A DNA stretch of 64,000 nucleotides from Candidatus Poribacteria bacterium (GCA_965205025.1 CBDBFU010000014.1:320001-384000), one strand, 5' to 3'. Numbered from the stretch's first letter, positions 8,753-60,151 are shown. Made by a program: numbers and translations. Notes: generated by a model from the letters alone, not told the origin.

Positions 8753-9329
8753 ATGAAGATTAATAAAATATTTCGGTAATCCAGTCCATAAACTTATCGT
8801 AGGGGCGGGGTTAACCCGCCCGTATATTACCGAATTTAAAAGTTAATCTTGATTACGCATTCCTCGGAACTGTATCCGTTCTAAAGACACATGGGTTTCT
8901 TCAATAGACCTGTCTACGAAATATTTATAGAAGATATATTTGAACCAAATTCTTGAGTCCCATAGGGACGGAATGTTTATAGCAAAGATGCTTGCTTCAT
9001 ATTCTTGAGTCCCGTAGGGACGGAATGTGTATTGAAGTCGTTATTTCCAATATTCTAAGCCCCGGTGAATGCCATAAGGCATTCATACCCGGGGAACGCC
9101 CACAGGCGTTCATACCGTTGATTCCTTGATTTGCGGGGCGAAAGGTGTGTAGAAAACGTACTAAACCACTAAACCTAAGCCCCGGTGAATGCCATAAGGC
9201 ATTCATACCCGGGGAACGCCCACAGGCGTTCATACCGTTGATTCCTTGATTTGCGGGGCGAAAGGTGTATCCTTAACCAGTATAATACCGATAACCCGTA
9301 TAATACCGAATTAATATATTAATCTTCAT
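8753..9329. mobile_element. ATGAAG-ended MITE composite inside a split GTACCACAAAC...GTTTGTG hairpin; carries REP hairpins and a 120-bp tandem duplication
   Basis: Left end ATGAAGATTAA..TTCGGTAAT at 8753; right ends ..ACCGAA..TTAATCTT(G/C)AT at ~8853 and 9329; host arms at 8740-8752 and 9330-9340. Confidence 0.65.
9055..9268. repeat. 120-bp-period tandem duplication, each unit holding two nested hairpin micro-elements
   Basis: 9055-9148 is identical to 9175-9268. Confidence 0.9.
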
Positions 9330-9542
9330 TTAGTTTGTGATATTACTCCTTACCCTCTCCAAAACTATTATCCGTGAAATCCGCGTAATCTATGTAATCT
9401 GTGATTCAGACAACTAACTGATAGCCGAAAGCCAAAAGCTAAAAAATTATGAACAAAAATAAACTAATTAGCAACAAATATAAAAACTATCAGATAGATA
9501 ATTAAAACCATTTGCGTTGTTTCAATTATTAAATGATAAGAA

Positions 9543-9664
9543 CAGGACTTACGCATTTCATCTTAAAGTCCCCCTGATAAGGGGGATTTAGGGGGTTAAA
9601 ACACCGAAATGACGGCTTTTTAAGTCAAAATTTACCTTTTTCTGCTTAAGTTGCGTAAGTCCTA
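9543..9664. mobile_element. 122-bp MITE with the TIRs of the IS701-like element
   Basis: CAGGACTTACGCA...TGCGTAAGTCCTA with 5-bp TSD AAGAA (9538-9542, 9665-9669); internal CCCCCTGATAAGGGGGATTTAGGGGG. Confidence 0.9.
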
Positions 9665-9764
9665 AAGAATTAAGAATATAGGCACCTTGACAAGCATTTA
9701 GTCAGTCAACTTTAATTTACTAACAACGTCTATATGTATATAGATATAGAAATAGGTATACCTT

Positions 9765-10697
9765 ATGAATCCACCAAAAGTTACCGTTGTAGGGAGTGCT
9801 AATGTTGATTTGGTAATTCGTTCAGAACGAATACCTGAAAAAGGAGAAACTATATTCGGTGATTCTTTTGATATATTCACAGGAGGTAAAGGTTTTAACC
9901 AAGCCACAGCCGCAGCCAGATTAGGAGCAGATGCAACTTTTATTAGTAAAGTGGGAAATGACAGCTTTGGAAAGATGCTTCGTGATGCCATGTCATCTGA
10001 GAACATTAATACACATCATGTTACTATAGATAAGGATGTTGGAACCGGTATAGCGAACATATTGGTTGATCCAAACGGTGAGAATAGTATTATAGTTATT
10101 CCTCGTGCAAATATGTGCATTAATATAACCGAAATTGACAAGGCAGCAGAGAGTATATCGGAAGCCGATATACTCTTGTTACAATTAGAAACACCTATTG
10201 ATGCTTCAATCCGTGCTACAGAAATAGCAAAAGCAAACAATACAACTGTGATCCTTGATCCGGCTCCAGCTAAACCATTACCTAAACATTTTCTATCACA
10301 GATAGATGTATTGACACCGAATACATCAGAAACCGAACATCTATCAGGTATACCTACAAATTCAATTGATTTATGTATTGATGCAGCGAAAGTATTGCAA
10401 CAGAAGTTATCTCAGGATAGATTCGCTGCAGTTGTAATGACACTTGGGAAGAAAGGTGTGCTACTTGTGACAAATAACCAAACTGAACATATATCTCCAG
10501 TTTCTGTTGATACAGTAGATACAACTGGGGCAGGTGATGCGTTCACTGGTGCATTAGCTACATCTCTTGCGAAATCAAAAACATTGATGGATTCTGTTCA
10601 TTTTGCAAATGCTGCCGGAGCAGCTGCCGTTACTGTCCTTGGCGCAACACCATCAATGCCAAATCCTTCAAAAATCGAATCATTAATGACAATGTAA
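9765..10697 (+). CDS. rbsK: Ribokinase (PfkB family)
   Basis: VVGSANVDL, GGKGFNQATAAARLG, LLLQLETP, DTTGAGDAF. Confidence 0.9.
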   Translation: MNPPKVTVVGSANVDLVIRSERIPEKGETIFGDSFDIFTGGKGFNQATAAARLGADATFISKVGNDSFGKMLRDAMSSENINTHHVTIDKDVGTGIANILVDPNGENSIIVIPRANMCINITEIDKAAESISEADILLLQLETPIDASIRATEIAKANNTTVILDPAPAKPLPKHFLSQIDVLTPNTSETEHLSGIPTNSIDLCIDAAKVLQQKLSQDRFAAVVMTLGKKGVLLVTNNQTEHISPVSVDTVDTTGAGDAFTGALATSLAKSKTLMDSVHFANAAGAAAVTVLGATPSMPNPSKIESLMTM

Positions 10698-10726
10698 TAC
10701 CATTTCTGATAATTAAAGTCTCTTTT

Positions 10727-10783
10727 AATGTAGCATAAACTTCCAGTTTGTGCTTTTCAATGTAGCATAAACTTCCAGTTTGT
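10727..10783. repeat. Tandem pair of GTAG-hairpin (REP-like) units
   Basis: aatgtagcataaacttccagtttgt twice, 32-bp period; related hairpins at ~17540 and ~57534. Confidence 0.75.
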
Positions 10784-10833
10784 CCAGTATTTCAAAAAAT
10801 GCTAAACAACTGTTCATGAGGCAAACATTTATA

Positions 10834-11014
10834 ATGAAGTATAAGAAAATATTTCGGTAATTCTAATTTTCCCAAACCCGGTAGGCGGGGAATGCCCTAA
10901 GGCATTCATACCGTTGATTTGGCGGTTTCCTAACCACGGGGAATGCTAAATAGCATTCATACCGTTGATTTGGATATTTCTCCAAAATTACCGAATAAAT
11001 AAATTAATCTTCAT
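10834..11014. mobile_element. ATGAAG-ended MITE containing a REP hairpin hit twice by the micro-element
   Basis: ATGAAGT..TTCGGTAATT and AATTACCGAA..TTAATCTTCAT; uninterrupted homologue at 19902-20016; TA on both flanks. Confidence 0.75.
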
Positions 11015-11066
11015 TAGAAATGGTATAATATAGAAAATTCATACAAAATATAATTTGGAGACTGAA

Positions 11067-13940
11067 ATGAAAAAAATAACTACATCAATAATCATCGGAA
11101 TTACATTTCTCTTAATTACTTCAATCACCATAGCACAAGAGAAATGGGAAATAAATATGAGGAAAGACTTTGAGAAAGTGTTGAAAACAAATAAGAACGC
11201 AACAGAGAAACATAGAGATTTAATAGATAAGTGGAAAGAGGAAGGACACCTGGCTGATCTTACAACTCTATATGAATCTGAAAAACCGAATAAACAAGAT
11301 GATGCTCCATTCTTCTATGGATTAGGTTATGTCTATGTTCTTACAAATCCAAATCTCAAAGCAACTACCGATGAAAAGGCAATTCACAATTTTGAAACTG
11401 CAATACAGATTGATCCTTCCCTTTTTTGGGCACATTATAGTTTAGGGGCTGTCTTTAAAAAGCAGGAAAGATATGATGAAGCCTTAGCAAAATTTAAGAC
11501 CTGTCTCACACTCAACCCAGACTATTATCCTGCACATTACTATATCGGTGAAATACAACTGAAACAGGGGAATCATTCTGACGCACTTTCTTCATTTCAA
11601 TTCGCTCAATCCTTGAATCCTAAATGGGAATACCCAATTTATGGAACAGGTTTAGTTTATCTTGACCAAGGTGATCGAAATCAAGCACGAGAAACTTTTG
11701 AACGTGCAATTCAATATAATCCAAAATTTGCACCTGCATATATTAAATTAGGACAAATCCTTGCAATGGATAAATTCTATGATGATGCACTGCAAGAATA
11801 TCAGAAATCATCTGAATACCAACCCTATACAGGAAATGATGTTTTTGAGTTAGCGGTCATTTTTGCTGATACTGGAAATGCAGATGGAGCTATACAATTA
11901 TATCAACGAACTCTTGAACTCGATCCTACTCACGCTCCCGCACATTTGGCAGTTGCTGATATTTTATATTCTCAAGGTGATACGAAAACTGCTGCCATTC
12001 ACTACCAAAAGGCAATTGAGCAAGACCCCACACTCAAAGATCATATCTTTAAACCCTTAGAACCATATTATGTTGGAATTATGAGTGCGGAGGAAGCACG
12101 CCAACATCTCGAAAAAATTATGTCTATATTACCTAATGACCCTCGACCTTATTTCTATTTAGGTAAATTGGAAGCAGATTCTGGGAATATACCACAGGCA
12201 ATTGAAAACTACAATAAGACACGGGAAATTGTAGAATTAGAACCCAATTTTCTGGAGATGGAACTACCACTTGGACAATTTAATGATGTCTATTTTATTC
12301 TCGGTGAACTTTATTATAAACAAGATAAGAAAGAAGAAGCATCGATTAATTTTAAACGTGCATTACAAGTGGATCCAACCCTAAGAACACGATTCTTGGA
12401 TGAAGGTAAAAATGCCTTTGATAATGAAAATTATAAAGAGTCTATTCTTCCGTTAAACAAACACCTACTTCTTTTTCCAAATGAAATAAAGGCAATCTAC
12501 CTGTTAGGACAGAGTTACGAAGCAGATGGAAATACGGAAAATGCTCTCCAATATTATAATAGGTCTATTGAATTGGATCCAAACAGATCTGATATTTTAT
12601 ATAAGATGGTACATATTTATCGAGAAACTGAATCACATCAGAATGCACTCGATACATTAAAGAAACTAATTATTTTAGATGCGAATGATTCTGAAGCACA
12701 CTACCTATCTGCCCTAACATATCTATCATTAGGTAATCAAGAAGAAGCCTTGAATGCTTTTCTGGAGACTATAAGATTGACGCCTGACAATGTGGCTGCA
12801 CAATATCAAACTGGATTGCTATATGAAGACAAAGGTGATCTGGACAATGCGCTTATATATTATGAAGAAACTATAAAATTAGATCCTGAAAACCCAGAAC
12901 CCTTTTTCAAACTCGGTGCTATCTATTTAAATCGTAATGATGAAGATAATATGATTAGAATTTATGAACCTGCGTTAATACTGGAACCCAACCATCCTGA
13001 GATACATTATAAGATGGCTACAATCTTTGAAAAACGGAGTAAAACTGATTCGGAAGGATTCAATTCTGATATTATACTCAAAGCTTTTCATCACTACGGC
13101 TTAGCAAATGAACATGATCCAGAACAATATGAGTGGCATTACCAATTCGCCAGATTATTGGATACCTACGCAGAAACACTTGAGGATTTTGTGAAATACG
13201 CTGAAATGGCTGTTAGTGAATATACGACAACTATTGCTCTCAAACCAGATTTTGCTGATGCATACTACTATAGAGCAATGATTACAAATCGCTATAAACG
13301 TATTGGTGAAAAACTTTACAGAAGTAGTCAGATCCTTGAAGATTTTAACCAAGTTGTTGAATTAGATCCAAAGAACGTTGACGCGTTATTCCATATTGGA
13401 ACACTTCAACTTTGGATTGAAAAATACAAACTCGCAGAAGAGACTTTTAAGAAGGTCATCAAACTTGATCCAACCTATAAAGGTGTCCATTCTCAATTAG
13501 GAGAACTTGCTGAAAGAAATCAGGAGTTTAAGAAAGCTATTCAATTATATGAAAAAGAGTTAACCTTAGATGATAAGGCAGTTGTCGCATATCAACGCCT
13601 CGGTGATCTTTATTACAATTCTGAAATGCAATTGAATAAAGCTAATGATATGTTAGAAAAGGCACTTGAGCTTAGTGAGAGACATGTTCCTACAATTCTT
13701 GTTTATGCAAATGTTCTGTATAGTATGGACAAACTCGGAGCAGCTGCAGATCAATTTGAACGGGCAATTCAATTTGAGCCACGCAATCTAACAGCAAACT
13801 ATAATCTTGCATTAATGTATCAATATTCTGAACGTATTAAATTAGCTACAGAACAATGGAAGCATTTTCTGACATTGAACCCTCCAGAACAGTGGAAAAT
13901 AGAAGCAGAAAACAATCTTAGAGATATTGAAAACAAATAA
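11067..13940 (+). CDS. Large multi-TPR protein with N-terminal signal peptide
   Basis: MKKITTSIIIGITFLLITSITIA leader after a GGAG RBS; many TPR units (AHYxLG..A..F..A..LxP). Confidence 0.9.
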   Translation: MKKITTSIIIGITFLLITSITIAQEKWEINMRKDFEKVLKTNKNATEKHRDLIDKWKEEGHLADLTTLYESEKPNKQDDAPFFYGLGYVYVLTNPNLKATTDEKAIHNFETAIQIDPSLFWAHYSLGAVFKKQERYDEALAKFKTCLTLNPDYYPAHYYIGEIQLKQGNHSDALSSFQFAQSLNPKWEYPIYGTGLVYLDQGDRNQARETFERAIQYNPKFAPAYIKLGQILAMDKFYDDALQEYQKSSEYQPYTGNDVFELAVIFADTGNADGAIQLYQRTLELDPTHAPAHLAVADILYSQGDTKTAAIHYQKAIEQDPTLKDHIFKPLEPYYVGIMSAEEARQHLEKIMSILPNDPRPYFYLGKLEADSGNIPQAIENYNKTREIVELEPNFLEMELPLGQFNDVYFILGELYYKQDKKEEASINFKRALQVDPTLRTRFLDEGKNAFDNENYKESILPLNKHLLLFPNEIKAIYLLGQSYEADGNTENALQYYNRSIELDPNRSDILYKMVHIYRETESHQNALDTLKKLIILDANDSEAHYLSALTYLSLGNQEEALNAFLETIRLTPDNVAAQYQTGLLYEDKGDLDNALIYYEETIKLDPENPEPFFKLGAIYLNRNDEDNMIRIYEPALILEPNHPEIHYKMATIFEKRSKTDSEGFNSDIILKAFHHYGLANEHDPEQYEWHYQFARLLDTYAETLEDFVKYAEMAVSEYTTTIALKPDFADAYYYRAMITNRYKRIGEKLYRSSQILEDFNQVVELDPKNVDALFHIGTLQLWIEKYKLAEETFKKVIKLDPTYKGVHSQLGELAERNQEFKKAIQLYEKELTLDDKAVVAYQRLGDLYYNSEMQLNKANDMLEKALELSERHVPTILVYANVLYSMDKLGAAADQFERAIQFEPRNLTANYNLALMYQYSERIKLATEQWKHFLTLNPPEQWKIEAENNLRDIENK

Positions 13941-14020
13941 AAAACATGTCAGATATCTCTAATTTCGAACTAATTAAAAATTTACCACATGTCTATGGAT
14001 ACAGACAATAAATCTTCAAC

Positions 14021-14130
14021 ATTTCCTCTTAAAGTCCCCCTGATAAGGGGGATTTAGGGGGTTAAAAACATTAAATAAACGATTTTATATGCAAATATAT
14101 CCGTTCTCCGTTCAAATTGCATTTGTCCTG
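14021..14130. mobile_element. Degenerate copy of the IS701-derived MITE
   Basis: Same core aaagtccccctgataagggggatttagggggttaaa; decayed right end tgcatttgtcctg. Confidence 0.7.
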
Positions 14131-14155
14131 TTAATTATCAAACTCACGTTACAAC

Positions 14156-14845
14156 ATGTCTATAAATTCAGACAATAAATCTTCAACATTTCCATTGACA
14201 CATTTTCAGGAAACACTTAATACAGATCTGATTGGCAGGTCTGGCATACAATTCTACAATGAAGTATCATCAACAAACGATGCTGCAATCCAGCAAGGTA
14301 AGATGTATGGAGCACAGGAAGGAAAACTTTTCATAGCTGATTACCAAACTGCCGGACGCGGACGATATGGTCGCAAATGGAATGCTTTACATGGGAAGTG
14401 TCTCTTAGTTTCTATTATCTTTACACATCGTCTGAAAAAGGATGAAGTACATTTACCCAATCTGATAGGGGCACTCTCTATCGCACAAGCCATCAGTTCA
14501 TTTTTGACCCTACATGCAAGGATAAAACATCCAAACGATGTCCGTATAAATAAAAAGAAAGTTGCTGGAGTCTTAACCGAGATTCAATATGATAAAAACA
14601 AACATCCATTTTTCGTATTAGGTTTTGGGGTCAATGTCAATATCACATTACAGGAATTTCCAACTTCGCTCCAAAAAACTGCAACATCATTATTCATAGA
14701 ATCTAAACTTCAAAATGATGATATGTGTAGAGGGGAAATACTCAATCAGATTTTGACCTATCTTGAGAAAAATTATCTTCTTCTAAAATCCGGAAATGTC
14801 CAGCAAATCAAATCTGATTTAAGTAAGTGGGAAGAGGTATCATGA
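14156..14845 (+). CDS. birA: Biotin--[acetyl-CoA carboxylase] ligase, no HTH domain
   Basis: SSTND, QTAGRGRYGRKW, IKHPNDV, KKVAGVLTE, GFGVNVN. Confidence 0.9.
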   Translation: MSINSDNKSSTFPLTHFQETLNTDLIGRSGIQFYNEVSSTNDAAIQQGKMYGAQEGKLFIADYQTAGRGRYGRKWNALHGKCLLVSIIFTHRLKKDEVHLPNLIGALSIAQAISSFLTLHARIKHPNDVRINKKKVAGVLTEIQYDKNKHPFFVLGFGVNVNITLQEFPTSLQKTATSLFIESKLQNDDMCRGEILNQILTYLEKNYLLLKSGNVQQIKSDLSKWEEVS

Positions 14846-15279
14846 AAATCATTGTCAGTGCATGCCTTCTTGGCACAAATTGTCGCTATGACGGTGGGAA
14901 CAGTAAAAACTTGAAGGTAATAAACCTGACTAAGAAAGATGACCTAATACCTGTGTGTCCAGAAGAAGCAGGAGGGTTACCTACTCCTCGTCCCGCAGTT
15001 GAAATCGTCGGTGGGGATGGTGATGATGTCTTGGATGGAAAGGCGAAAGTACTTACATCAGATGGAGAAGATAAAACAGCTGAATTCATAAAAGGTGCAC
15101 AATATGCTCTCGAATTGATCCAATCTGAAGGAGCAACGAAAGTAATACTTAAATCAAGAAGTCCATCATGTGGTTGTGGAGAAATCTATGACGGATCGTT
15201 TTCTGGATCTCTCATTTCAGGAAATGGAGTCACGACTGCTCTCTTAAAAAGACATGGAATAGAGGTAATTTCAATATAA
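14842..15279 (+). CDS. DUF523 family (TudS/2-thiouracil desulfurase-like) Fe-S protein
   Basis: SACLLGxxCRYDG, VCPEExGGLxTPR, LKSRSPSCG; ATGA overlap with the birA stop. Confidence 0.85.
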   Translation: MKIIVSACLLGTNCRYDGGNSKNLKVINLTKKDDLIPVCPEEAGGLPTPRPAVEIVGGDGDDVLDGKAKVLTSDGEDKTAEFIKGAQYALELIQSEGATKVILKSRSPSCGCGEIYDGSFSGSLISGNGVTTALLKRHGIEVISI

Positions 15280-15300
15280 AGACCTGAATTTGAAATATAC

Positions 15301-16074
15301 CTATCCCATCAACTTAATTATCTGTTCACCAATTTCTGGACTTCGCATCAGTGATTCCCCCACCAATATAGCATTTAAACCAACCTGTTCTAACTTTTTT
15401 ACATCCTCACGTGAAAGAATGCCACTTTCACTAATGACAACTTTATCGTCCGGTATTAATTCATACAATCTAAATGTTGTTTCCAAATCTGTATGAAATG
15501 TCTTCAAATTCCTATTATTTATCCCAATAATCTCAGCACCTACATCTAAAGCAATTTCAAGATCTTCTTCTGTATGGACTTCAACAACAGATGCCATAGT
15601 GAGAGATGAAGCAATATCTATAAATTCTTGTAATTGACTTGATGTTAATGCAGCAACAATTAAGAGAATAGCATCCGCCCCTCCAACGCGAGCTTGATAA
15701 ATGTGGTACGGATCAATAGTGAAATCTTTTCTCAGTAAAGGTACATCAACAACTTCTCTAATTGAGGTAAGATAATCAAGTTTACCATCAAAGAATCTTA
15801 CATCAGTCAATACAGATATAGCAGCAGCACCATATTCAGCATAGGTTTCAGCAATTCGAATAGGATCAAATGACGCACGGATAATACCCTTACTCGGAGA
15901 TTTCTTCTTAACCTCGGCTATAAGGCTCATCTCCTCAGTTATTGAAATTGCTTCCATAAAGTCTTTCGTTGGGTGAATGGAGTTTAACTTACTATGTAGT
16001 GTCGAAAGTGGCACTGAATTCTTATCAAATTCCAATTCTTTCAGTTTATGTCCAATTATTGTTTCTAATATCAA
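15301..16074 (-). CDS. trpC: Indole-3-glycerol phosphate synthase
   Basis: IAEVKKKSPSKG, LLRKDF, GINNRNL, SESGI. Confidence 0.95.
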   Translation of the reverse strand: MILETIIGHKLKELEFDKNSVPLSTLHSKLNSIHPTKDFMEAISITEEMSLIAEVKKKSPSKGIIRASFDPIRIAETYAEYGAAAISVLTDVRFFDGKLDYLTSIREVVDVPLLRKDFTIDPYHIYQARVGGADAILLIVAALTSSQLQEFIDIASSLTMASVVEVHTEEDLEIALDVGAEIIGINNRNLKTFHTDLETTFRLYELIPDDKVVISESGILSREDVKKLEQVGLNAILVGESLMRSPEIGEQIIKLMG

Positions 16075-16132
16075 TGGAATACCTACTTTATAAATTTAAA
16101 TCATGATATTGACCTAAACATTTTATTTTAGA

Positions 16133-17143
16133 TTACTCGTTTGAAATCACCCTTAATTCTTCAAGTTTTTCAAAAGCACGTCCTGAATCAATCGAATCAA
16201 TTGCCAGTTTCATTCCCACCTCAAGGTTTTCTGCCTTTCCACCTGCAACAATTGCAGCCCCAGCATTTAATAAAACTATATCACGTTTAGGTCCCATTTG
16301 ACCCTTTAGTATATTCGTGGTAATTTCAGCATTCTCTTCAGGTGTACCACCAAGGAGTGATTCTTGTTCTGTCTTTGGGATACCAAGCGTTGTCGGATCA
16401 AGTGTGTATGTATTCACATCACCATTCTTTAATTCCGATATTCGAGTTGTTGTTGTAGTAGTAATTTCATCTAACCCATCAGCACCGTGGACAATAAATG
16501 CATGTATTGTACCAAGATTCTTAAGCACATGTGCATGTGTTTCAGTAAGTTCAGAAGAATATACTCCTAATACTTGAGCCTTTGCACCTGCAGGATTTGT
16601 CAGAGGACCAATAGCATTGAATATCGTTCGAATCCCAATTTCTCTCCTCGGACCGATAGCATGTTTCATCGCACCATGTAATAGTGGGGCAAACAGAAAA
16701 CCAACCCCTACTTCATCAATACACTTTCCAACCTGTTCGGGGGATATCTCAATGTTTACACCAAGAGCCATTAACACATTAGCACTTCCACTTTGACGAG
16801 TTACACCTCTATTCCCATGTTTTGCAACTGAAATACCTGCACCAGCAACCACAAAAGCAGAGGTTGTTGATATATTAAATGAATGTAATCCTGTACCTCC
16901 TGTACTACAAGTATCAACAACAAGAGGATGTTTTGTAGTAATCTTTGTTGCTTTTTCACGCATCACGCGCACTGCCCCAGTAATTTCTTCTACTGTCTCT
17001 CCTTTCAGTCGCAAGGCAGTAAGAAAACACGCAATTTGGGCATCTGTGGCATCCCCTTCCATGATTTCACTCATGGCTCCAACCATTTCTACTTCTTCTA
17101 AGTCGTTCCCCTCAACAACCTTCTGTATTGCATCTTGGATCAC
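16133..17143 (-). CDS. trpD: Anthranilate phosphoribosyltransferase
   Basis: DTCSTGG, FNIST, VAKHGNR, RTIFNAIGPLTNP, GLDEI. Confidence 0.95.
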   Translation of the reverse strand: MIQDAIQKVVEGNDLEEVEMVGAMSEIMEGDATDAQIACFLTALRLKGETVEEITGAVRVMREKATKITTKHPLVVDTCSTGGTGLHSFNISTTSAFVVAGAGISVAKHGNRGVTRQSGSANVLMALGVNIEISPEQVGKCIDEVGVGFLFAPLLHGAMKHAIGPRREIGIRTIFNAIGPLTNPAGAKAQVLGVYSSELTETHAHVLKNLGTIHAFIVHGADGLDEITTTTTTRISELKNGDVNTYTLDPTTLGIPKTEQESLLGGTPEENAEITTNILKGQMGPKRDIVLLNAGAAIVAGGKAENLEVGMKLAIDSIDSGRAFEKLEELRVISNE

Positions 17144-17247
17144 CTAAACACCTCCATAGTTAACCATATATCATACATTGTAGTAAACCATCATATTATA
17201 ACCAAAAAACACCTATAATTCAAGAATAGATACACATATTCTCCTCT

Positions 17248-17312
17248 TCTCTTCTGTAGGAGCGATTTCCGATTCCCAACTCTCCTCTTCTGTAGGAGCG
17301 ATCTCCGAGATT
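17248..17312. repeat. Tandem GTAGGAG REP-like units, 36-bp period
   Basis: cttctgtaggagcgat(t/c)tccga twice; same family at 58378-58446. Confidence 0.7.
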
Positions 17313-17474
17313 CAAAAAAATACCTCTTTGTACCACAAACTTTCAGTTTGTGACCTGAAAAATGACTAATATAATAACCGCCTAATGAGACAATAATTTA
17401 TGGAAATGGTATAAGAACATAATAACCAAAATTATTGAAGAAAACCAAATCATAATACAACTAAAGATATAAAT

Positions 17475-17597
17475 AACATCAGTTTGATAATAAAAAATGT
17501 CAGTTCGATAGACAGAATTTTGTCCTGAAGATAGTCTTTGTAGCACAAACTTTCCAGTTTGTGCACTCTGGTGTTAACTAAAGGTTCGGGTTACAAT
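17475..17597. repeat. 123-bp dispersed repeat (copy at 57469-57591)
   Basis: Near-identical aacatcagtttgataa...gtagcacaaactttccagtttgtgc...gggttacaat. Confidence 0.85.
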
Positions 17598-18520
17598 ATA
17601 ATAATACAATCAAACATAGAAAAAATAGCGATGGGCTTCAATGGTCAGAAGATACAGAAAAACCAGAAAAGAACACAAAAATCAAAATTCTCAAATTTCA
17701 TGAAAATAACCATAAACCCAGTCTACTACAAGGATTAGAACAATATTACAAAGTTACACCATGTAACGAAAAGTGTAACTTTTTCATTTTACTCTCTTTC
17801 GTTTTACTAAAGAGTATCACATTAATACAGTTCCTCTTCGTAGGGACGGGGTCTCCCCGTCCGTATTTTCGATATATTATACCTGGCAAGAACAATGAAT
17901 CCTCCAAATCTATGATTAATGGGGTATGTTCTAATGTCTTGTCAAAATGGATGGAGAAGATAAATTACATTCAAACAATCCAAAATTTATGGATTAGCGG
18001 AAAAGCAAAAGACACAAAATTCATCATTTTAGAGAATTCTCGTAACCTTAAAAAAGTGGCTATGAACATAGTGTAGTACTGACGGGATAGAGGTTTTATC
18101 AATGTCACACCATGTGACAAAAAGTGTAACAATTTAAACTAATAGATAATATATATATTGCAATTTGTAAACCATTAAAAAGGGGTGCGTAAAGTAATTG
18201 TCACTTTACTTAACACCAATGAAATCTCAATTCCAATTCATACAGTCTGAATTTCGAGATTTACAGCTTATTTTTCACTACTATAATTTTGACAATTCTA
18301 TTTCAGGGAAACTGAGAATCTAATGATAAGTCTATTTTTTGGAGTTTTCTATATCAAAAATACCGTACTCCAGCGGAGTACTATGTCTATAGAAAACAAT
18401 ATCGGAACAATCTGGTACTCCAGATGAAGTTAAAAAAATAAATAGGTAATTTGGACCCAGAGCTGGTAGGTGCGGTTTCCTAACCACGGGGAATGCTAAA
18501 TAGCATTCATACCGTTGATC

Positions 18521-18997
18521 CATAGGCGTCAATTTAAGGAGAAGTACGCTATAAATTTCAGGTCGGTAGGTTCGGTTTCCTAACCGAACCGGGTTTGTTC
18601 CAATTGCGTTCATAAAGTTTTTCGCGAAGGATCCAGTGCGATTAGGAAATCGCACTATTAGCGTCAATTTAGACTATGATTTATTGGTTTTGAGTCCCGG
18701 GGAATGCCTAAATGGCATTCATACCGTTGATTTGGTAGGGACGGAATGTCTATAGAAGTGGTTATCACCAATATCCCAAGCCCCGGTGAATGCCATAAGG
18801 CATTCATACCGTTGATTCGCGGGGCGAAAGGTTTGTAGAAAACGTAATAAACACAAAACACTAAGCCCCGGGGAATGACTAAATGTCATTCATACCGTTG
18901 ATTCGCGGGGCGAAAGGTGTATCCTAAATTGATGCCTATGGTGCGATTAGGAAATCGCACCTACCGGCCTGGGAAAACCACTAAATTGACGCCTATA
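18521..18997. mobile_element. CATAGGCGTCAATTTA-ended non-autonomous element (outer copy)
   Basis: TIRs cataggcgtcaattta and taaattgacgcctata; right flank gtgcggtttcctaaccgcac; the left copy of that palindrome (from 18470) is interrupted by a micro-element. Confidence 0.75.
18656..18940. mobile_element. CATAGG-family element (inner copy) with a 20-bp palindromic direct repeat on both sides
   Basis: tattagcgtcaatttag and ctaaattgatgcctatg; gtgcgattaggaaatcgcac at 18636-18655 and 18941-18960. Confidence 0.8.
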
Positions 18998-19901
18998 GTG
19001 CGGTTTCCTAACCGCACCGGATTCTACAAGAAACTGGAAATTACCCGAATAAATTCTTTAACTTCATGCGGAGTGCTATGCCCAAATACACTATGGATGA
19101 AAAACATATAAGTACATAATACACACTTAAGTTATAATATGGTTAACGTATGTGATTCACGGAAAATTGGTATAATTGAAATTATAAACCCTTATAGGAT
19201 AAGGGCTCGTAAAATTGCTCCGTGAAGGTTTCCGTGAAAGTGCTATCATTTCAAAACGATAGATATTAACACTTTTTTACATTCACATTATCCATTCATC
19301 CAACAGAATTAGGTGTTCGATCTCACATTGAAAGCAAGAGTAACATTGTTTGTAAAATGATTTCCGAGATAAATATTGGGATCCACATACTATTGCAGCG
19401 TAATGGTTAGTGGCAAATACTTTACATACCCCTAAACATTCTGATTCTGGTAATGTATAGAGTATTGTGATATACTTACTTCAATGAAGTAATGTATGTT
19501 TTTGTCATTTTAGTTGGAACATAGATAACTCTATTGATTACTCATACTGAAGAATTATCTTAATATTAAATGAAAACAAGATCAGAACTCCCATCTTCCA
19601 CGCCTCTTGATATCCGTCACCTATTCAACAATTCGAATATCCAATTCCTACATCCAGTCGGATGGCAACTGCTTCCCCCAACCAACATGGGTTTATATAT
19701 CAAGCGGAAGCAATTCATAGATGTCTCGCTGCTGGATTACATCAGTGTCCACAATACAACAAGGAAGAATCACTTCATTCGATGAATCTATTAACGGAGA
19801 TTAATTCATCAAGATTCTCAAAGCAGTGATATTGGAAATATATTCAATTAACCTAATACCATTTCTAATTGAAAATGTCTCTTTTTTGTACCACAAACTT
19901 T

Positions 19902-20016
19902 ATGAGGATTAAATAAATAGTTCTGTAAGCCTAATTTTCCCAAACCCGGTAGGTGCGGTTTCCTAACCGCACTGAATATTTCTCCAAAACTGCCGAATTA
20001 AATAATTAATCTTTAT
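19902..20016. mobile_element. ATGAAG-family MITE (115 bp) in the loop of a GTACCACAAAC hairpin
   Basis: Empty-site paralogue at 17329-17415 (gtaccacaaactttcagtttgtgacctgaaaaatgact...). Confidence 0.8.
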
Positions 20017-20157
20017 TCAGTTTGTGACCTGAAAAATGACTACCATAATAACCACCTAATGATATAATAATTTATAGAAATAGTATAAGTTATCAATACA
20101 GTAAAATTCTATTGTGCCAAATTTTGTATGCAATAAAATTATGAATTAGGAAGTAAT

Positions 20158-21492
20158 ATGAACAAACCAAATATAATCTATATTCATTCTCATGATACTG
20201 GACGATATGTACAACCCTATGGTCACGCGATTCCTACGCCAAACATTCAAAAATTAGCCGAAGAAGGTGTCCTATTCAGAAATGCCTTCTGTGCAAATCC
20301 AACATGTTCACCTTCTCGCGCATCACTTCTAACTGGACAGTGGGCACATAGTTGTGGCATGGGTGGTTTAGCAAATCGAGGATGGAGTTTACCTGTTCCT
20401 GAACATCTCATACCTCATACTTTAAATAGTGCAGGTTATGAAACTGCATTAGCAGGATTCCAGCATGTCGTACGCAACGTTGAGGATACAGGTTATCAAC
20501 GGATCTTATCAAAAGAATATGGAAAGTCAGGGGCTGAAGAACGTGCATGTGCATTTCTATCTGAAAAGCATAATTCTCCCTTCTTCTTAGATATCGGGTT
20601 TGGAGAAACACACAGGAAGGCAAAAGGTTTTGATCCACCCCCAGACGGTGAACCGAAAACCGATCCACGTTATGTGAAACCACCACCGACCTTCCCAGAT
20701 ACACCTGATACAAGAAAAGATATGGCAGAATACATCGATTCAGCGCGCAGATTAGATTGGAAAATGGGGAAGGTATTTGATACTTTAGAGAATAATGGAC
20801 TCGCAGAAAACACTTTGGTGATATGTACAACTGACCACGGTCTGGCTTTCCCTCGAATGAAATGTCATGTCACTGATCACGGTATCGGTGTAATGCTAAT
20901 TATACGGGGTCCCGGTGGTTTTGATGACGGTAAAGTGATTGATGGATTGGTCAGTCAGATAGATCTATTCCCAACTATCTGTGAATTAGCAGAAATTGAT
21001 CCACCGGACTGGTTACAAGGATATTCTGTTTTGCCACTTGTAGGTGGTAAAGAGAATGAAATCAGAGACGCTATCTATGCAGAGGTAAATTACCACTGTT
21101 GCTATGAACCACAACGAGCAATCCGCACCAAACGATGGAAATATATCCGTCGATATGATAACGCTAAACTGTGGGCATTACCAAACTGTGATGATAGTAT
21201 CAGTAAGACATTTATGATGGATAACGGTTGGACAGATCAACCAGTGGAATCTGAACGCTTGTATGATGTTGTATTTGATTCCTCAGAAGCACATAATCTT
21301 GCTGAAGATCCTGAGTATAATGATGTATTGCTTGAGATGCGTGGAAAATTGGAACAGTGGAGATCTGAAACAAACGATCCAGTTACTGACACCCAAATTA
21401 TGATACCGCCTGATACAGCAGTACTCAATGACCCATCAGATGTTTCTCCTGGAGACAAACATTATCCTGCATCAGAGATAGTAAATAATTGA
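20158..21492 (+). CDS. Sulfatase (Cys-type; sulfamidase-like)
   Basis: CSPSRASLLTG, TTDHG, SQIDLFPT. Confidence 0.9.
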   Translation: MNKPNIIYIHSHDTGRYVQPYGHAIPTPNIQKLAEEGVLFRNAFCANPTCSPSRASLLTGQWAHSCGMGGLANRGWSLPVPEHLIPHTLNSAGYETALAGFQHVVRNVEDTGYQRILSKEYGKSGAEERACAFLSEKHNSPFFLDIGFGETHRKAKGFDPPPDGEPKTDPRYVKPPPTFPDTPDTRKDMAEYIDSARRLDWKMGKVFDTLENNGLAENTLVICTTDHGLAFPRMKCHVTDHGIGVMLIIRGPGGFDDGKVIDGLVSQIDLFPTICELAEIDPPDWLQGYSVLPLVGGKENEIRDAIYAEVNYHCCYEPQRAIRTKRWKYIRRYDNAKLWALPNCDDSISKTFMMDNGWTDQPVESERLYDVVFDSSEAHNLAEDPEYNDVLLEMRGKLEQWRSETNDPVTDTQIMIPPDTAVLNDPSDVSPGDKHYPASEIVNN

Positions 21493-21524
21493 GGGAAATT
21501 ACTTAGTCTGGAATCGTTACAATA

Positions 21525-21673
21525 ACGTGAGTTTGATAATAGGCAAATAAGCTTTATTTTTCAAAAATATTACTTCTATACGCCCGGTAGGTGCGGTTTC
21601 CTAACCACGGGAATGCTAAATAGCATTCATACCGTTGATTCAAACATAAAAATCTGATTTTTCAAACTCACGT
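21525..21673. mobile_element. 149-bp MITE with ACGTGAGTT ends (IS982-like) and a 7-bp TSD
   Basis: acgtgagtttga...tcaaactcacgt; TACAATA at 21518-21524 and 21674-21680. It contains a REP and a micro-element. The family assignment is tentative. Confidence 0.8.
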
Positions 21674-21845
21674 TACAATATAATCATGCATACGATATTT
21701 CTTACAAATCGTGTGCAAGTGTAATCTGGATCTAATCGGAATATAATCATACTCCATAAGGTGCAATTAATACTATTTGTAACACTCTTTTCACTTGTCT
21801 ATTTCAACTGAAAGTGATAAGATAATTATATACTGATGATTTACG

Positions 21846-21866
21846 ACTGGGTAAGATTTACCCAGT
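21846..21866. promoter_or_regulatory. Perfect 9-bp-arm palindrome, candidate operator
   Basis: actgggtaa-gat-ttacccagt directly upstream of the AAGGAG RBS of the PhyH gene. Confidence 0.4.
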
Positions 21867-21890
21867 AGATTCTTAAAGGAGAATACGTAA

Positions 21891-22697
21891 ATGCGGCACG
21901 AACTTACTGCCGAACAAATCGAATTCTATAGAGAGAATGGATTTCTGGTAATTGAGAATTTTCTGGACGAAATTGAATTAGCTGAGTGGCGAAGGTGTAC
22001 CGATGAAGCAGTAACAGAACGACTTGGAAACTCAGTTGAAAATATGACAAACCAACTGGATCCAAAGAATTTTTATGCACGTGTTTTTACACAATGTTTA
22101 AGACTTTCAGATTCACACACTGGAATGCGAAAGTTGGTACATGATCCAAAAATTGGTCGCATGGCAACACAATTAGCAGGTGTTGACGGTATGCGAATAT
22201 GGCACGATCAAGCATTAATTAAACCCCCCAACGGCAATCCTACAGCATGGCATCTTGATGTACCCTATTGGTCATTTGATTCACAGCACGCAGTTTCATT
22301 CTGGGTTGCATTAGACGATGCAACTCTTGAGAATGGTTGTATGTGGTATTTACCAGGGACACAAAAGACTGCTCGTTTTGACAATGTTGGAATTGGAGAG
22401 AATATTGGTGCTTTGTTTGATGTCTATCCTGAATGGAAAAAGCTTACACCCCAATCAGCACCATGTCCTGCAGGATCAATGGCATGGCATAATGGGTTAG
22501 TTGCACATGGGGCAGGTGCTAATATGACTTTCTCTCACCGTAGAGCCATGACTTGCGGCTTTATGCCAGATGGATGTACTTTTAATGGAAAGAAGAATAT
22601 CCTGCCAGAACCCTATTTCAGTTCACTTACAATTGGTGATGTTCTGGACAACAATGAGCAGAATACTCTTGTTTGGCATAAAGATTGGGAAAAGTAA
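21891..22697 (+). CDS. Phytanoyl-CoA dioxygenase (PhyH) family Fe/2OG enzyme
   Basis: YRENGFLVIENFL, WHLD, WVALDDATLENGCM, HGAGAN, RRAM. Confidence 0.9.
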   Translation: MRHELTAEQIEFYRENGFLVIENFLDEIELAEWRRCTDEAVTERLGNSVENMTNQLDPKNFYARVFTQCLRLSDSHTGMRKLVHDPKIGRMATQLAGVDGMRIWHDQALIKPPNGNPTAWHLDVPYWSFDSQHAVSFWVALDDATLENGCMWYLPGTQKTARFDNVGIGENIGALFDVYPEWKKLTPQSAPCPAGSMAWHNGLVAHGAGANMTFSHRRAMTCGFMPDGCTFNGKKNILPEPYFSSLTIGDVLDNNEQNTLVWHKDWEK

Positions 22698-51176: not shown

Positions 51177-51192
51177 TTTACACCCCTATATA

Positions 51193-51232
51193 AAACAAAA
51201 AACGAGAACTTTCTCATAATGGAGAGCCTCGC
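51193..51232 (-). promoter_or_regulatory. Hairpin plus U-tract leader upstream of rimP
   Basis: Minus strand gcgaggctctcc..gagaaagttctcg-ttttttgtttt just before the RBS; resembles the conserved rimP leader. Confidence 0.45.
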
Positions 51233-51568
51233 GGTTCAGTGAATTATTTGCTGATTATATAGAGTCGTAAGACTACTACTGCATCAGCAGATTAGTAAAT
51301 TTGACCTGAATGACTATATATTACATGGTATCCCTATCCTTTTGTAAACAAAGTCAAATTCATGAACGACTCACCTATGGTCAAACAATCTATAATCACT
51401 GTCTTGTTTTAAACACGATTTATATCTCACATTTCTTGAGTATAACAGTTTAACCTATTCAATATACATTTGTCAAGATTTATTTTCTCAAGTCCATTAG
51501 CATTCAATTGTGAAATATAGATACATTCTCATATACCTTTTTACATATCACAAAGATATGTTATACTA

Positions 51569-52195: not shown

Positions 52196-53493
52196 ATCAA
52201 GTGGTTGTCGAAACTAAAGAATTGCAGTTGAATCCTTCCATTAAAATGCTTGATATTTTTGCAGAAGATAGGAACGTCCCTCTCTTTCTTGTTGGAGGAA
52301 GTGTGCGAGATCTACTTCTCAAGAGATCTACAAATGATTATGATTTTACATTGGCTTCTGATGCAATTGAGTTTGCAAAAGCTTTTTCAGAAAGTATAAA
52401 TGCACCTTTTATACAATTAGAGGAAAAACCTGCTACGGCGCGCGTGATTGCAAACTATTCTAAAGTTGGTGATAATCAGTTTACTATTGACTTTGCTCAA
52501 TATAGGGCACAATCTTTGGTAGAAGATCTACAATTACGGGATCTCACGATTAATGCAATGGCTATTCCGCTTAAGTCTTTACTTAGATCTGAGCAACCTG
52601 AACTAATAGATCCTTGTGATGGAAGAAATGATTTAGATAATGAAATACTCAAATTTCCCTCTGAAGAAGTCATACTTCATGACCCTCATCGTTTACTAAG
52701 GATTTTTAGATTCGCTGCACAATTGGATTTTCAAATTTCCCAAGTCTCTATGTCTTATGTCAATAAGCATCAATATAGGTTAGCAGAAGTATCTAAGGAA
52801 AGAATCCGTGATGAGTTTTTGAAAATACTCAATACCAAAAACTCAATTAAATACCTTCTGGAAATGTTAAATGTTGGACTATTATCACAAGTTCTACCCA
52901 CAATCAAAGAATCTGATAATTTGAAAGCAGCCCTTATGAATTATGAAGATAACACAATTCCTGATGAAATTAGTCAATATAAGCGTAAAATTCAATTATA
53001 TCTCAGGGAAGAATTAGGTGCAGAAGCTACCAGAAATGCATTAATTAAACTATCTCTCCTCATGATAGATAATAAAGATATTGGAAAATTACTTCGTCTC
53101 AGTAGAATTGCAATAAAGTTCACCGAAACTGTTATTGAGGGTTATCACTTTATTCAAGAATCTCATTTAACAGAGAAGAAAATAATAAATCTACTAAGAA
53201 GTTCACATATAGATTTATGGGGTGTGCTCTTATTTCTGCTGCTCTAAACCCGAATTTAACGCATCAATTCAAGAGAATAGTGAATACCTATTACAACCAT
53301 TTTTCTACCGATTATGAAACAAGGACGACTCATCACAGGAAAAGACATTATTAATGAGTTTCAGTTGAAGGGAGGAAAAAAAGTGGGGGCAATTTTGAAG
53401 GTGATTGAAGATAAACAATTTTATGGCGAGATTAAGACTCGAGCTGAAGCATTGGCTGTAGTTGAAACACTTATCTACGAACAGAGAAAATGA
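52192..53493 (+). CDS. CCA tRNA nucleotidyltransferase/poly(A) polymerase family, with two compensating apparent indels (~53233, ~53300)
   Basis: VGGSVRD, DYDF, RDLTINAMA, DPHRLLRIFRFAAQL, ERIRDE; the C-terminal LITGKDII..G..VGAIL is in the original frame up to TGA 53491-53493. Confidence 0.85.
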
Positions 53494-53497
53494 TAAA

Positions 53498-56646: not shown

Positions 56647-56731
56647 TGCAGTACTTCTTCTATAATCTTATAGGAATTGCTATAATCTAATCGCAAGTGT
56701 ATAATACACACAAAACGGATAGGATGTCAAG

Positions 56732-57454: not shown

Positions 57455-57468
57455 TTTTATGCTATTTC

Positions 57469-57591
57469 AACATCAGTTTGATAACAAAAAATGTCAGTTC
57501 GATAAACAGAATTTTGTCCTGAATATAGTCTTTGTAGCACAAACTTTCCAGTTTGTGCACTCTGGTGTTAACTAAAAGTTCGGGTTACAAT
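57469..57591. repeat. Second copy of the 123-bp dispersed repeat
   Basis: Matches 17475-17597. Confidence 0.85.
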
Positions 57592-57815
57592 GTGTCATAT
57601 CAAACTCTCGTTATTTCAGTAATTGTTTTTACACTCATATACATTTATGTGGGTGTGTTTCTCTATGCAGACGGTAGGATTGTTTGTTCTGAAGTGTTTT
57701 AGGGGGTAGTGTTAGTGCGTTGGCGCGCTAAACTGCTATGAAGTTCTGATTTGATATATGGTAATTTACTGAAACTAATTGACACCTTATGTGTTCTAAT
57801 CAAGTGAAACCATTA

Positions 57816-58232
57816 CTATTCCTTCTCTGATTTACTCTCTCCTTCTTTTTTAAATTGTAACTCAGCCTTTAGGCGTTTATTTTCCTCTTGTAATCTCTTA
57901 TTTTCAGCCTCTAATGCTGCTCTTTGTTTTCGGTTTTCCCGGCTAATTTTGTATTTTTCCAAAGCGTCTTGAGCGAATTTAATACCTGATACAGTGAAAC
58001 CCATGAGAAGTCCTCCTATATGAATCACAAGTGATGATACTAATAAAAAAAGTGGAATAAGCGTGCTTATCTCTAATAAAGTCGTATTAAGATTCTGATT
58101 CTCAGGTTTTATGTAAATCCAATACGGATAAATTAAAATAGCTGCAATCCATATCGCAAATAGCGTCCAGTCATTTATGAATTGTCTGATTGAATGTTGA
58201 TCTTTTTCTTCAGTATCCTTTTTATTTTTCAT
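57816..58232 (-). CDS. Hypothetical 2-TM protein with a C-terminal coiled coil
   Basis: Two hydrophobic stretches; ENKRL repeated. Confidence 0.6.
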   Translation of the reverse strand: MKNKKDTEEKDQHSIRQFINDWTLFAIWIAAILIYPYWIYIKPENQNLNTTLLEISTLIPLFLLVSSLVIHIGGLLMGFTVSGIKFAQDALEKYKISRENRKQRAALEAENKRLQEENKRLKAELQFKKEGESKSEKE

Positions 58233-58377
58233 AATATATAAAAAATTATACGCGATATGTTTATAAAATTCAACAAATAATTAGGTGAAACCCAACATTT
58301 CCTGTATGTCCAGCGTTACATGTTGGGTTTCGTTCCTCAACCCCATAGGCATCAATTTAGTGAGATTCTTATATTTC

Positions 58378-58446
58378 TTCTCTTCTGTAGGAGGGAACTC
58401 CGATTCCCGACTCTTCTCTTCTGTAGGAGGGAACTCCGATCCCCGA
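58378..58446. repeat. Tandem GTAGGAGGGAACTCCGAT REP-like units, 36-bp period
   Basis: Two near-identical units, preceded by a CATAGGCATCAATTTAG end at 58344. Confidence 0.75.
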
Positions 58447-58593
58447 TCTTTCAAGAAGCTAATGCTAAATCTATACCATGGGAATCGATTGTTGTGATTA
58501 ACAGGAAATTATGATAGAATTTCGTCTATCAAAGACTTAATACACTCATATCAGAATGATATACACAAGGAAATTATACCCTTAGGAGTCATC

Positions 58594-59811
58594 ATGGCAG
58601 AGAAACAGTTCAAAGTTCGAGCAGCACATTGTGATTACAGGGCATCAGAAGAAGAGATATATCAGATTTTGCGTCGTATTACGGATCCTCTTACACGTGC
58701 TTGGAAACCTATTGAAGATGCTAAGAAGGTTGTCATTAAATTCAATATGATGAAACCGCATGAACGTATCATCTATTTTGAAGGTCGACGTCGGGAGCTT
58801 GTAGATGATGCTGTGTGCCGTGCTGTTCTCAGATTACTCAAAGAACATACAACTGCACAACTGATTGCAACTGATACAAACCCTTATACCCATGGTCATC
58901 GAATGCCTCCCGGCTTCAACTATGAACACCATCTGAAGGAGTTTGATGTCCAGTTCGTGGATTCAAACCTACCTCCGTTTAAGATATACGATGTCCCAGG
59001 TGGTGGTTCAATGTTTGATCGCTATACATTAAGTTCATGTTTTGAGGATGCAGATGCAGTGGTATCCGTTGCTAAGATGAAAAATCATGCTTTTATGGGT
59101 ATCACCTTATGTACTAAGAATCTTTTTGGTTTACCGCCGATGTTGTTACCTGAAGGTAGAACACGAAGTTATTATCATCATATTATTCGATTGTCGTACG
59201 TCTTGCCTGATCTCGCTTTGATTACAAAACCGTGTTTAAACATCATTGATGCACTCACAGGACAGTGGGGACGAGAATGGGGTGGCGAAGGAAGAATCTG
59301 TAACGCTCTAATTGCTGGGGATCATCCGATTTCCACAGACACAGTAGGTATGCATCTGATGGGTCATGATCCTACTTCTGATTGGCCAACACCTCCGTTT
59401 AAACGTGATAGAAACCATATTCTGATTGCAGCACAACGTGGGTATGGTACCGTCAACTTAGATGAAATTGATTGGGAAAGCGAAGTTAAAGCTCCACTGG
59501 CTGAATTTGATTCTGTTGAAACAGACAGTCAAGAAACGGTTGCAAATTGGCGTCGCACAACCTGTGAACAAGGATTGGTATATCTTGAAAACCAGAGAGA
59601 TATGGTTGATCGGTATCGAGGGGAGTTCATATATTTACAAGGTGGAGAGGTAGTGTGGAATGGACCGGATCCATCTAATCTTGGTAGTCGTCGTCAACTA
59701 AGTGGCCCACAGAAGGATAGTGCCCTTTGGCTTAAACTTGTTGATGCCGAAGAACTTGAAGGTGAACGTTTTGATGTATACGAAGATTGTTTAAAAACCT
59801 TTGCTGCGTAA
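58594..59811 (+). CDS. DUF362 family protein
   Basis: KVVIKFN, KMKNH..ITLCTKNLFG, IIDAL, D-T-V-G..MG; GGAG RBS. Confidence 0.8.
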   Translation: MAEKQFKVRAAHCDYRASEEEIYQILRRITDPLTRAWKPIEDAKKVVIKFNMMKPHERIIYFEGRRRELVDDAVCRAVLRLLKEHTTAQLIATDTNPYTHGHRMPPGFNYEHHLKEFDVQFVDSNLPPFKIYDVPGGGSMFDRYTLSSCFEDADAVVSVAKMKNHAFMGITLCTKNLFGLPPMLLPEGRTRSYYHHIIRLSYVLPDLALITKPCLNIIDALTGQWGREWGGEGRICNALIAGDHPISTDTVGMHLMGHDPTSDWPTPPFKRDRNHILIAAQRGYGTVNLDEIDWESEVKAPLAEFDSVETDSQETVANWRRTTCEQGLVYLENQRDMVDRYRGEFIYLQGGEVVWNGPDPSNLGSRRQLSGPQKDSALWLKLVDAEELEGERFDVYEDCLKTFAA

Positions 59812-59904
59812 TCAACCTGTTAGTATTGATATATTTGGATTCTCTATCCACCTATTTATGGTGAATTTTGAAAATAAATATACACTTTTCTGCCTTGGTA
59901 GGTA

Positions 59905-60151
59905 TTGAGTCCCGGGGAATGCCTAAATGGCATTCATACCCGGGGAATGCCTAAATGTCATTCATACCGTTGATTCCTTGATTACTTGATTTGGTATGGG
60001 CGGAATGTCTATAGAAAAATTGATAGATTTACATTATGATTTAAGTAAAACAGGGACAATCATACAGATAATTGAGTCCCGTAGGGACGGAATGTCTATA
60101 GCAAAAGTGTATACCCCATAATTGAGTCCCGTAGGGACGGAATGTCTATAG
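59905..60151. repeat. GAGTCCCGTAGGGACGGAATGT hairpin repeats (3 copies); the first is filled with self-nested micro-elements
   Basis: Empty copies at ~60073 and ~60123; interrupted copy at 59905-60014. Confidence 0.85.

Follow-up and report, generated by a model that had tools for sequence, protein, structure and literature searches.

Can a hairpin of a few dozen nucleotides (nt), which encodes nothing, behave as a mobile element in its own right, or is it only a part of the larger repeats in which it is found? This question is raised by a 64,000-nt stretch of a Candidatus Poribacteria assembly, hereafter the window, which corresponds to positions 320001-384000 of contig C14 (genome G000; 5.66 Mb, 38% G+C, 33 contigs). 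A first-pass annotation of the window had described 13 copies of a short hairpin as a micro-element that inserts into other hairpins and into itself. We found that this unit of about 36 nt is discrete, with filled and empty sites in many types of target, and we consider it very probable that it is a mobile DNA unit, apparently one of the smallest seen.

We read each copy directly and confirmed all 13 starts of the hairpin part, or head, of the unit: 9063, 9090, 9183, 9210, 10886, 10937, 18487, 18698, 18784, 18869, 21608, 59913 and 59941. Every copy lies on the + strand, and the prefix of the copy at 21608 is short by one G. The sequence TTCATACCGTTGAT occurs 10 times in the window, on the + strand only, against 0.98 ± 1.12 expected, and a count of 10 was reached in 0 of 100 shuffles; the remaining three copies, which do not carry it, are the outer heads of doubles, where a second head comes next. 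A genome-wide parse of G000 identified 273 heads in 238 arrays, the latter number including one remaining false positive (C1:21987). The unit reads C-GG(G/T)-GAA-stem-loop-stem-TTC-ATACC-GTTGATT-Y. Its head of 27-28 nt, C-GG(G/T)-GAA-NNNN-loop(4-5)-NNNN-TTC-ATACC, is followed by the tail GTTGATT and then usually by C (147 arrays) or T (72 arrays), and of the 238 arrays, 174 have CGGG as the prefix of the first head and 31 have CGGT. The covariation of the stem, claimed at first from the window copies, was borne out by compensatory changes at three pairs among 162 distinct units, which had been pre-selected for at most one stem mismatch: T-A in 141 and C-G in 16 at pair 4; C-G in 123, A-T in 15 and T-A in 8 at pair 6; and C-G in 113 and T-A in 35 at pair 7. 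The computed single-stranded DNA (ssDNA) fold of the unit consists of one 7-bp hairpin (z -2.7 to -4.9), and the CGGT prefix does extend the stem, as had been proposed, by a 3-bp outer stem past a 2-nt bulge.

That the unit is discrete was evident from the comparison of filled and empty sites. The hosts of the unit are repetitive extragenic palindromes (REPs, among them REP-A and REP-C), further hairpin repeats (hairpin-B) and transposable elements of the miniature inverted-repeat type (MITEs). A repeat at 18420-19080 of the window and its five paralogues (on C5, C22, C20, C7 and C18) are near-identical save at five sites, which hold the unit in some of them and not in others: the 3′ arm of REP-C, the loop of REP-C′ (where TA is replaced), REP-A (with 0, 1 or 2 heads) and two hairpin-B loops (where A is replaced). 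At the scale of the genome, an empty twin with identical 12+12-nt flanks was identified for 87 of 219 tailed arrays. The empty sites reported in the window exist as well, those of REP-A at 60074-60088 (GAGTCCCGTAGGGAC, + strand) and further at 8955, 9007 and 60124, and that of REP-C (GTAGGTGCGGTTTCCTAACCGCAC) at 19949-19972 on the + strand. We take the empty state to be the older one, because 198 of the 232 REP-A left-right pairs in G000 are empty, and because the related genome G003 carries 244 copies of REP-C, all empty, and no unit at all, while another relative, G004, carries 132 units with only 4 copies of REP-C.

At least 11 types of target were identified, namely REP-A, two hairpin-B types, the loop, the 5′ foot and the 3′ arm of REP-C, a context E, two F types, and the unit's own loop and own foot; the position behind the TTGATT of a sister element is an additional target, used by tandem insertion. 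Most targets are the loop or the foot of another hairpin, most insertion points follow CC or GG, and the orientation of the unit relative to each host repeat is fixed. When the same head variant was compared in differing contexts, the common segment ran from the C before GGG through GTTGATT plus Y, which gives the length of about 36 nt. The filled/empty pairs confirmed that there is no terminal inverted repeat (TIR) and no target-site duplication (TSD), and that some host bases are replaced: 1-3 per insertion and 5 at one site, with 0-2 extra bases after GTTGATT. We also sought one clean rule for the 3′ junction (SS cut, YR step or fixed 2-nt loss), and none suited all contexts. Taken together, the paralogue and empty-twin comparisons uphold the first-pass description of a discrete unit aimed at hairpin loops and feet and at itself.

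The unit nests in itself, and the head and tail counts first given for the nested arrays of the window hold: two heads and two tails at 9063-9131 and in the duplicate at 9183-9251, and two heads and three tails at 59913-59991. With every self-insertion the array gains a head and an 8-nt tail octamer, CCTTGATT. Among the arrays of G000, 149 have one head and one tail, 20 have two of each and 1 has three of each; 45 further arrays have more tails than heads, and only 3 tailed arrays have more heads than tails. In the doubles within REP-A the outer head is constant and the inner heads are of at least five different kinds, and the REP-A arrays with one head and two tails have non-standard or chimeric heads. 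Both features fit repeated insertion followed by collapse of the tandem heads, with the tails left as scars. Of the arrays with at least two octamers, 78 adjoin a head and 7 are head-less, indicating that they are products of insertion and not prior targets; for the same reason, pre-existing CCTTGATT arrays were rejected as the targets. In the related genome G021, units were observed head to tail in tandem, repeating every 35-36 nt with head variants that alternate (L149, C1:410050-410500; L150, C1:4612950-4613300), each new unit lying directly 3′ of TTGATT, whereas the arrays of G000 are nested instead. We also identified a sister hairpin family in G000 (CGCCGAATGC..GCATTCGGCG, with TTGATT directly after), which has the same AATGC core and the same tail (for example on C13, - strand, at about 36922-36983, on C20 at 98990-99264 and on C23 at 52836-52897), and units of the micro-element are often found directly behind its TTGATT.

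Using the strict pattern, we found the unit in 93 of the 111 other genomes of the family, which carry 0-395 copies. It occurs in 38 of 39 genomes of one genus (g1) and in 55 of 65 of another (g13); none was detected in 7 genomes from four other genera or in 16 from three further families of the order. Three 17-mer matches outside Poribacteria were dismissed as chance, having no hairpin. REP-A was present in one of five relatives searched, and the unit in four of the same five. In the relatives the unit is found in other contexts, with nesting in 14 of 94 heads. Since host repeats occur without the unit and the unit occurs without them, these results indicate that the unit is an evolutionary entity of its own, which has spread through the family without depending on any single host repeat.

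The individual copies in the window, all on the + strand, illustrate the range of targets. The nested array at 9063-9131, with its tails GTTGATT and CCTTGATT, lies inside hairpin-B (GCCCC..GGGGC) and consists of a GCC/ATAA head at 9063-9089 and a CGCC/CACA head at 9090-9116; its second copy at 9183-9251 arose via a 120-bp tandem duplication (9058-9297), by which a complete nested array was doubled. Two single units lie in a host MITE of about 331 bp at 10700-11030, which has TIRs (ATACCATTTCT..) and no assigned strand: one at 10886-10919 follows GGTAGG at the 5′ foot of the REP-C hairpin (context D), and the other, a GCT/AAAT variant at 10937-10970, lies in the 3′ arm of that hairpin (context C2). 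Elsewhere, copies of this MITE were seen to have entered the micro-element at its TAAAT loop, and nesting thus runs in the reverse direction too. The composite repeat at 18420-19080 (+ strand) holds four single units. The first (18487-18520) is a GCT/AAAT variant in context C2, present in three of the four paralogues that share the segment and missing from one, and the second (18698-18734) is a GCC/TAAAT variant in REP-A between GAGTCCC and GTAGGGAC, where paralogues have 0, 1 or 2 heads. The third (18784-18818), a GCC/ATAA variant with the CGGT prefix, takes the place of A in the loop of an AAGCCCC-AGC-GGGGC hairpin, and the fourth (18869-18904), a GAC/TAAAT variant, occupies the loop of another copy of hairpin-B. 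A further GCT/AAAT unit in context C2, the one with the shortened prefix (21608-21641), lies in a MITE with TIRs of the AACGTGAGTTTGA type. Lastly, the nested array at 59913-59991 lies in REP-A and has the three tails GTTGATT, CCTTGATT and ACTTGATT.

On balance, we favour the reading that the element is a non-coding, non-autonomous unit of about 36 nt that targets hairpins and is moved by an enzyme supplied in trans. The unit would consist of a bulged-hairpin head closed by G and a single-stranded TTGATT(Y) tail. It would insert, in one orientation, into short unpaired stretches such as the loops and feet of REPs, the cores of MITEs and the loop or 3′ foot of an earlier copy of itself, usually after CC or GG, with 1-3 target bases replaced and none duplicated. 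Insertion into an older copy would yield an extra head and an extra CCTTGATT octamer. The tandem heads would then collapse by recombination while the octamers stay, and for this reason the octamers may be a tally of past events. After insertion, most copies would multiply passively with their REP and MITE hosts and be shuffled by gene conversion. We infer that the substrate is ssDNA and that the enzyme recognises the hairpin.

Several observations, given here and in the next three paragraphs, weigh against this reading. Some of them would be expected if the hairpin were instead a passive module, a building block of mosaic repeats comparable to bacterial interspersed mosaic elements (BIMEs) or BOX, which is spread by REP-A, hairpin-B and REP-C MITEs, by short-patch conversion and by slippage. 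As first noted, every copy in the window sits within another repeat, and we found that these hosts are lineage-specific REP or MITE insertions, as the passive module predicts. The MITE at 10700-11030, which lies between a ribokinase gene and a TPR gene and has a probable TAAT duplication in addition to its TIRs, is missing from its site in the three nearest relatives (G004, G018 and G042); the same three genomes have neither the MITE at about 21490-21740 nor the REP-A cluster at 59852-60217. Similarly, MITEs or composite repeats of at least four families are piled up over 2.2 kb downstream of trpD (17235-19438), where G004 and G018 have 146-186 bp. Because the three nearest relatives lack the host repeats altogether, the unit itself has no orthologous counterpart there: no orthologous site empty for the micro-element alone was found in them, and the comparison of filled and empty sites among related genomes, which the first-pass annotation had proposed, yielded no case for the unit. 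At 19617/19618 of the window, both G004 and G018 carry about 785 bp that are missing from G000. Contigs from four public runs broke at every repeat over window positions 8500-22000 and bridged 0 units, and being broken they have no bearing on polymorphism; scans of metagenome contigs that used a unique 26-mer adjoining the array at 59913 or a conserved gene-end pattern gave no match.

The head variant is also strongly tied to its context, with the same variant in 47 of 58 arrays in context C2 and in 19 of 28 in REP-A. This linkage indicates that many copies are hitch-hikers, and gene conversion could carry variants between contexts. The first-pass view of a mobile unit was therefore overstated in one respect, as most copies multiplied inside copies of their REP or MITE hosts and not by their own insertion. 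In addition, two of the paralogue sites (s3 and s4) show all four combinations of presence and absence, which points to gene conversion or recurrent events, and a five-head array of identical heads suits slippage. Even so, we regard the passive module as unlikely. It has to contend with at least 11 unrelated contexts with exact empty twins, with a unit that is abundant where REP-C is rare and absent where REP-C is abundant, with the presence of the unit in more of the relatives than REP-A, and with the different inner heads of doubles that share one outer context. Moreover, the first copy in a new context cannot be created by conversion. The copies are not fixed parts of one MITE, which the first-pass annotation had named as grounds for refutation: their junctions are independent, and host repeats exist without the unit.

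A single HUH candidate for the enzyme is encoded in the same genome, an IS200-like Y1 transposase. Contig C27 of G000 carries three intact copies of one Y1 gene, at 53023-53493 (-), 72619-73089 (+) and 86984-87454 (+) (loci L099-L102), and each copy has direct REP-A arrays upstream and inverted REP-A downstream, in the fashion of a REPtron. The protein, 157 aa long, scores 84.3 bits with the IS200 model (cut-off 55) and 32.7 with REP_Tyr_transpos (cut-off 80), and it has the Y---Q--HH signature, which marks subclass 1.2 in the part of PMC6006769 that deals with this group. According to the same part, terminal hairpin structures are generally missing from subclass 1.2, whose members are mostly from cyanobacteria and Bacteroidetes, and the REPtron-like layout was therefore unexpected. 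A head-less GTTGATT was found 60 nt upstream of every Y1 copy, and these are three of only four head-less tails beside a REP-A arm. In the homologues of G044, G021 and G016, the complement AATCAAC lies directly after the stop codon, next to a different REP. It is REP-A, not the micro-element, that flanks the Y1 genes, and the head-less tail is all of the unit that occurs there; a Y1 gene as sought by the first-pass annotation was found, but its ends share the tail motif and not the hairpin. We also observed that, in other species, different REP types (GCTCC-GCT-GGAGC) stand on the flanks of the Y1 homologues, and that downstream of Y1 in G055 (L106) a REP-A-like copy has, at the point where the unit inserts, another small hairpin (GCCAAATGCG..CGCATTTGGC) whose tail is likewise GTTGATT-TG. 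Copy numbers do not follow the gene: the median is 49 units in the 21 genomes with a close Y1 homologue and 89.5 in the 18 genomes that have none, a PF01797 match is absent in G010, G023 and G001 despite 108, 145 and 90 units, and G003 carries the Y1 gene and zero units. The original assignment to HUH/Y1 ssDNA transposition thus stands in part, as a Y1 gene with host REPs at its flanks and GTTGATT nearby is present, but insertion is imprecise, the unit has one hairpin, and Y1-less genomes are rich in units. We propose the Y1 gene as a possible mover of the unit, and as a candidate only.

The junctions add to these difficulties. They are untidy, with replaced and extra bases, unlike the precise cuts that Y1 transposases make in single-strand transposition, as summarised in a passage of PMC6006769. 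Moreover, the nested insertion is not expressible as one contiguous insert; this reading was rejected for both strands, as the outer GTTGATT has its G changed to C. Imprecise junctions would be natural if no enzyme were involved, that is, if replication stalled at an extruded hairpin and the nascent strand switched to another hairpin repeat, copied the unit and returned. The consistent choice of hairpin loops or feet as targets would be explained as well, and so would a copy number that has no link to Y1, with 90-145 copies in three Y1-less genomes. This enzyme-free copying nevertheless appears improbable to us. In every context the 5′ end of the unit is C-GGG and its other end GTTGATT, and such constant ends fit recognition of a defined end better than microhomology; the targets that end in GG have no microhomology to CC-flanked donors, and the orientation to each host repeat is invariant. 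A wider proposal, which we offer tentatively, is that a class of hairpin-into-hairpin mobile DNA survives in two genera of Poribacteria, with its history written in octamers, and that it is moved either by the orphan Y1 of subclass 1.2 or by enzyme-free templated strand switching. Finally, a functional cis-element under selection, such as a protein-binding or RNA hairpin (terminator, mRNA stabiliser or nucleoid site), is very hard to credit, for although nearly all arrays are intergenic (236 of 238 outside crude open reading frames), the gene on the 3′ side has the same orientation in 158 of 227 cases and the unit persists across two genera, close relatives differ from 0 to 395 copies, the copies lie inside other repeats and each other and not at fixed positions relative to genes, an Rfam search of window positions 8800-22000 returned no family at E ≤ 1, and no U-run follows the hairpin in the window copies.

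The distribution of the unit between the strands was also analysed. In G000 there are same-strand runs, the 124 adjacent pairs showing 35 switches where 54.9 ± 4.2 were expected, and in G017 all 40 of 40 lie on the + strand between 1.27 and 2.95 Mb. Loci of mixed strand are 2 of 154 in G000, the arrays being direct and nested. Host REPs show equal strand runs, and there are none in G021 and G022 (the strand strings of G021, G022 and G017 being exact to within 1-2 symbols). For these reasons the runs give no independent support for a replication-coupled mechanism. In a replichore test, GC and AT skew tracked the gene strand and dnaA was located, and no consistent flip was detected. Among the host repeats, REP-C (GTAGGTGCGGTTTCCTAACCGCAC) numbers 244 copies in G003, where a same-strand run lies at about 2.0-2.87 Mb, and none in G009.

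The closest known kinds of element are the small dispersed repeats (SDRs) of cyanobacteria and the systems of REPs with REP-associated tyrosine transposases (RAYTs). The unit works functionally like the SDRs of Nostocaceae and lives among repeats of the REP/RAYT type, and by the features that define them it is not a REP, a REP doublet forming a hairpin (REPIN), a MITE or a two-ended derivative of IS200. No paper joining Poribacteria with REP, MITE, IS200 or repeats was among the literature matches listed. The SDRs of Elhai et al. 2008 reportedly show self-nesting and occur together with short tandem repeats. In outline, SDR1-8 of Nostocaceae are described as very small, non-coding, dispersed and thought to be mobile, with hairpin-forming families among them, and all of this applies to our unit. 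SDR5 inserts precisely in the short palindromic target HIP1, between nt 3 and 4, according to PMC4390886. In the same way, the unit nests in itself and in other repeats and inserts at defined points of short palindromes. A passage of PMC3116915 describes the origin and the mover of SDRs as unresolved, and in the relevant part of PMC5861425 no SDR-like repeat is reported from HIP1-rich cyanobacteria outside Nostocaceae. The unit differs from SDRs in its host phylum, Poribacteria, in its length of 36 nt against 21-27, and in its TTGATT tail that builds octamer scars, its many target types and its replacement of 1-3 target bases. HIP1 is rare in G000, at 9 copies per strand against about 86 expected, and on this ground a cyanobacterial origin was rejected.

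With the REP, BIME and REPIN-RAYT systems the unit shares short extragenic hairpins, hundreds of copies and vertical persistence within a clade, and a Y1 HUH gene with inverted REP arrays is present here too, albeit for the host repeat REP-A. Complex self-complementary loops within REPs that carry GTAG are described in a passage of PMC3733652. The unit itself has no 5′ GTAG/GTGG tag, its prefix being CGGG or CGGT; unlike REPIN-RAYT systems it does not flank the Y1 gene and forms no inverted doublets, and it inserts into REPs; and the Y1 protein scores as IS200 and not as REP_Tyr_transpos, unlike a RAYT. Like the IS200/IS605 insertion sequences (IS608, ISDra2) and the small non-autonomous elements derived from them, the unit has no TIR and no TSD, and it has a bulged hairpin of the subterminal type, a tetranucleotide 5′ of the foot and a short 3′ extension; insertion after a short motif is seen in G021, where units lie directly 3′ of TTGATT. 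ISDra2 is said to target TTGAT. In contrast to that family, each unit has a single 7-bp hairpin and lacks a second end structure, the left flanks end in CC, GG or TTGATT and not in one conserved tetra- or pentanucleotide, and target bases are lost. Specific insertion into hairpin repeats also recalls IS1397 and ISPpu9, insertion sequences aimed at REP hairpins that are cited in PMC3116915 and PMC12288879, but these are full-size, encode a transposase and have defined ends, whereas the unit is 36 nt and non-coding. TIRs and a probable TSD, both of which the unit lacks, are present in the host MITE at 10700-11030.

Mobile DNA this small probes the minimum sequence that a genomic parasite needs. 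How such units move has been unsettled since the description of the cyanobacterial SDRs, to judge from the passage in PMC3116915, and the present element offers remarkably clean material for this question: it is present in hundreds of copies, has filled sites with exact empty twins in one genome, uses many types of target and keeps a count of scars in its octamers. The 112 related genomes, with 0-395 copies and with or without the Y1 gene, constitute a natural experiment. If the Y1 gene were indeed the mover, this would be a first function for subclass 1.2, and it might point to the mover of the cyanobacterial SDRs. For annotation, it matters that the arrays break short-read assemblies. For the sponge symbionts themselves, these results show that intergenic DNA grows by repeats stacked in repeats, as in the 2.2-kb pile downstream of trpD.

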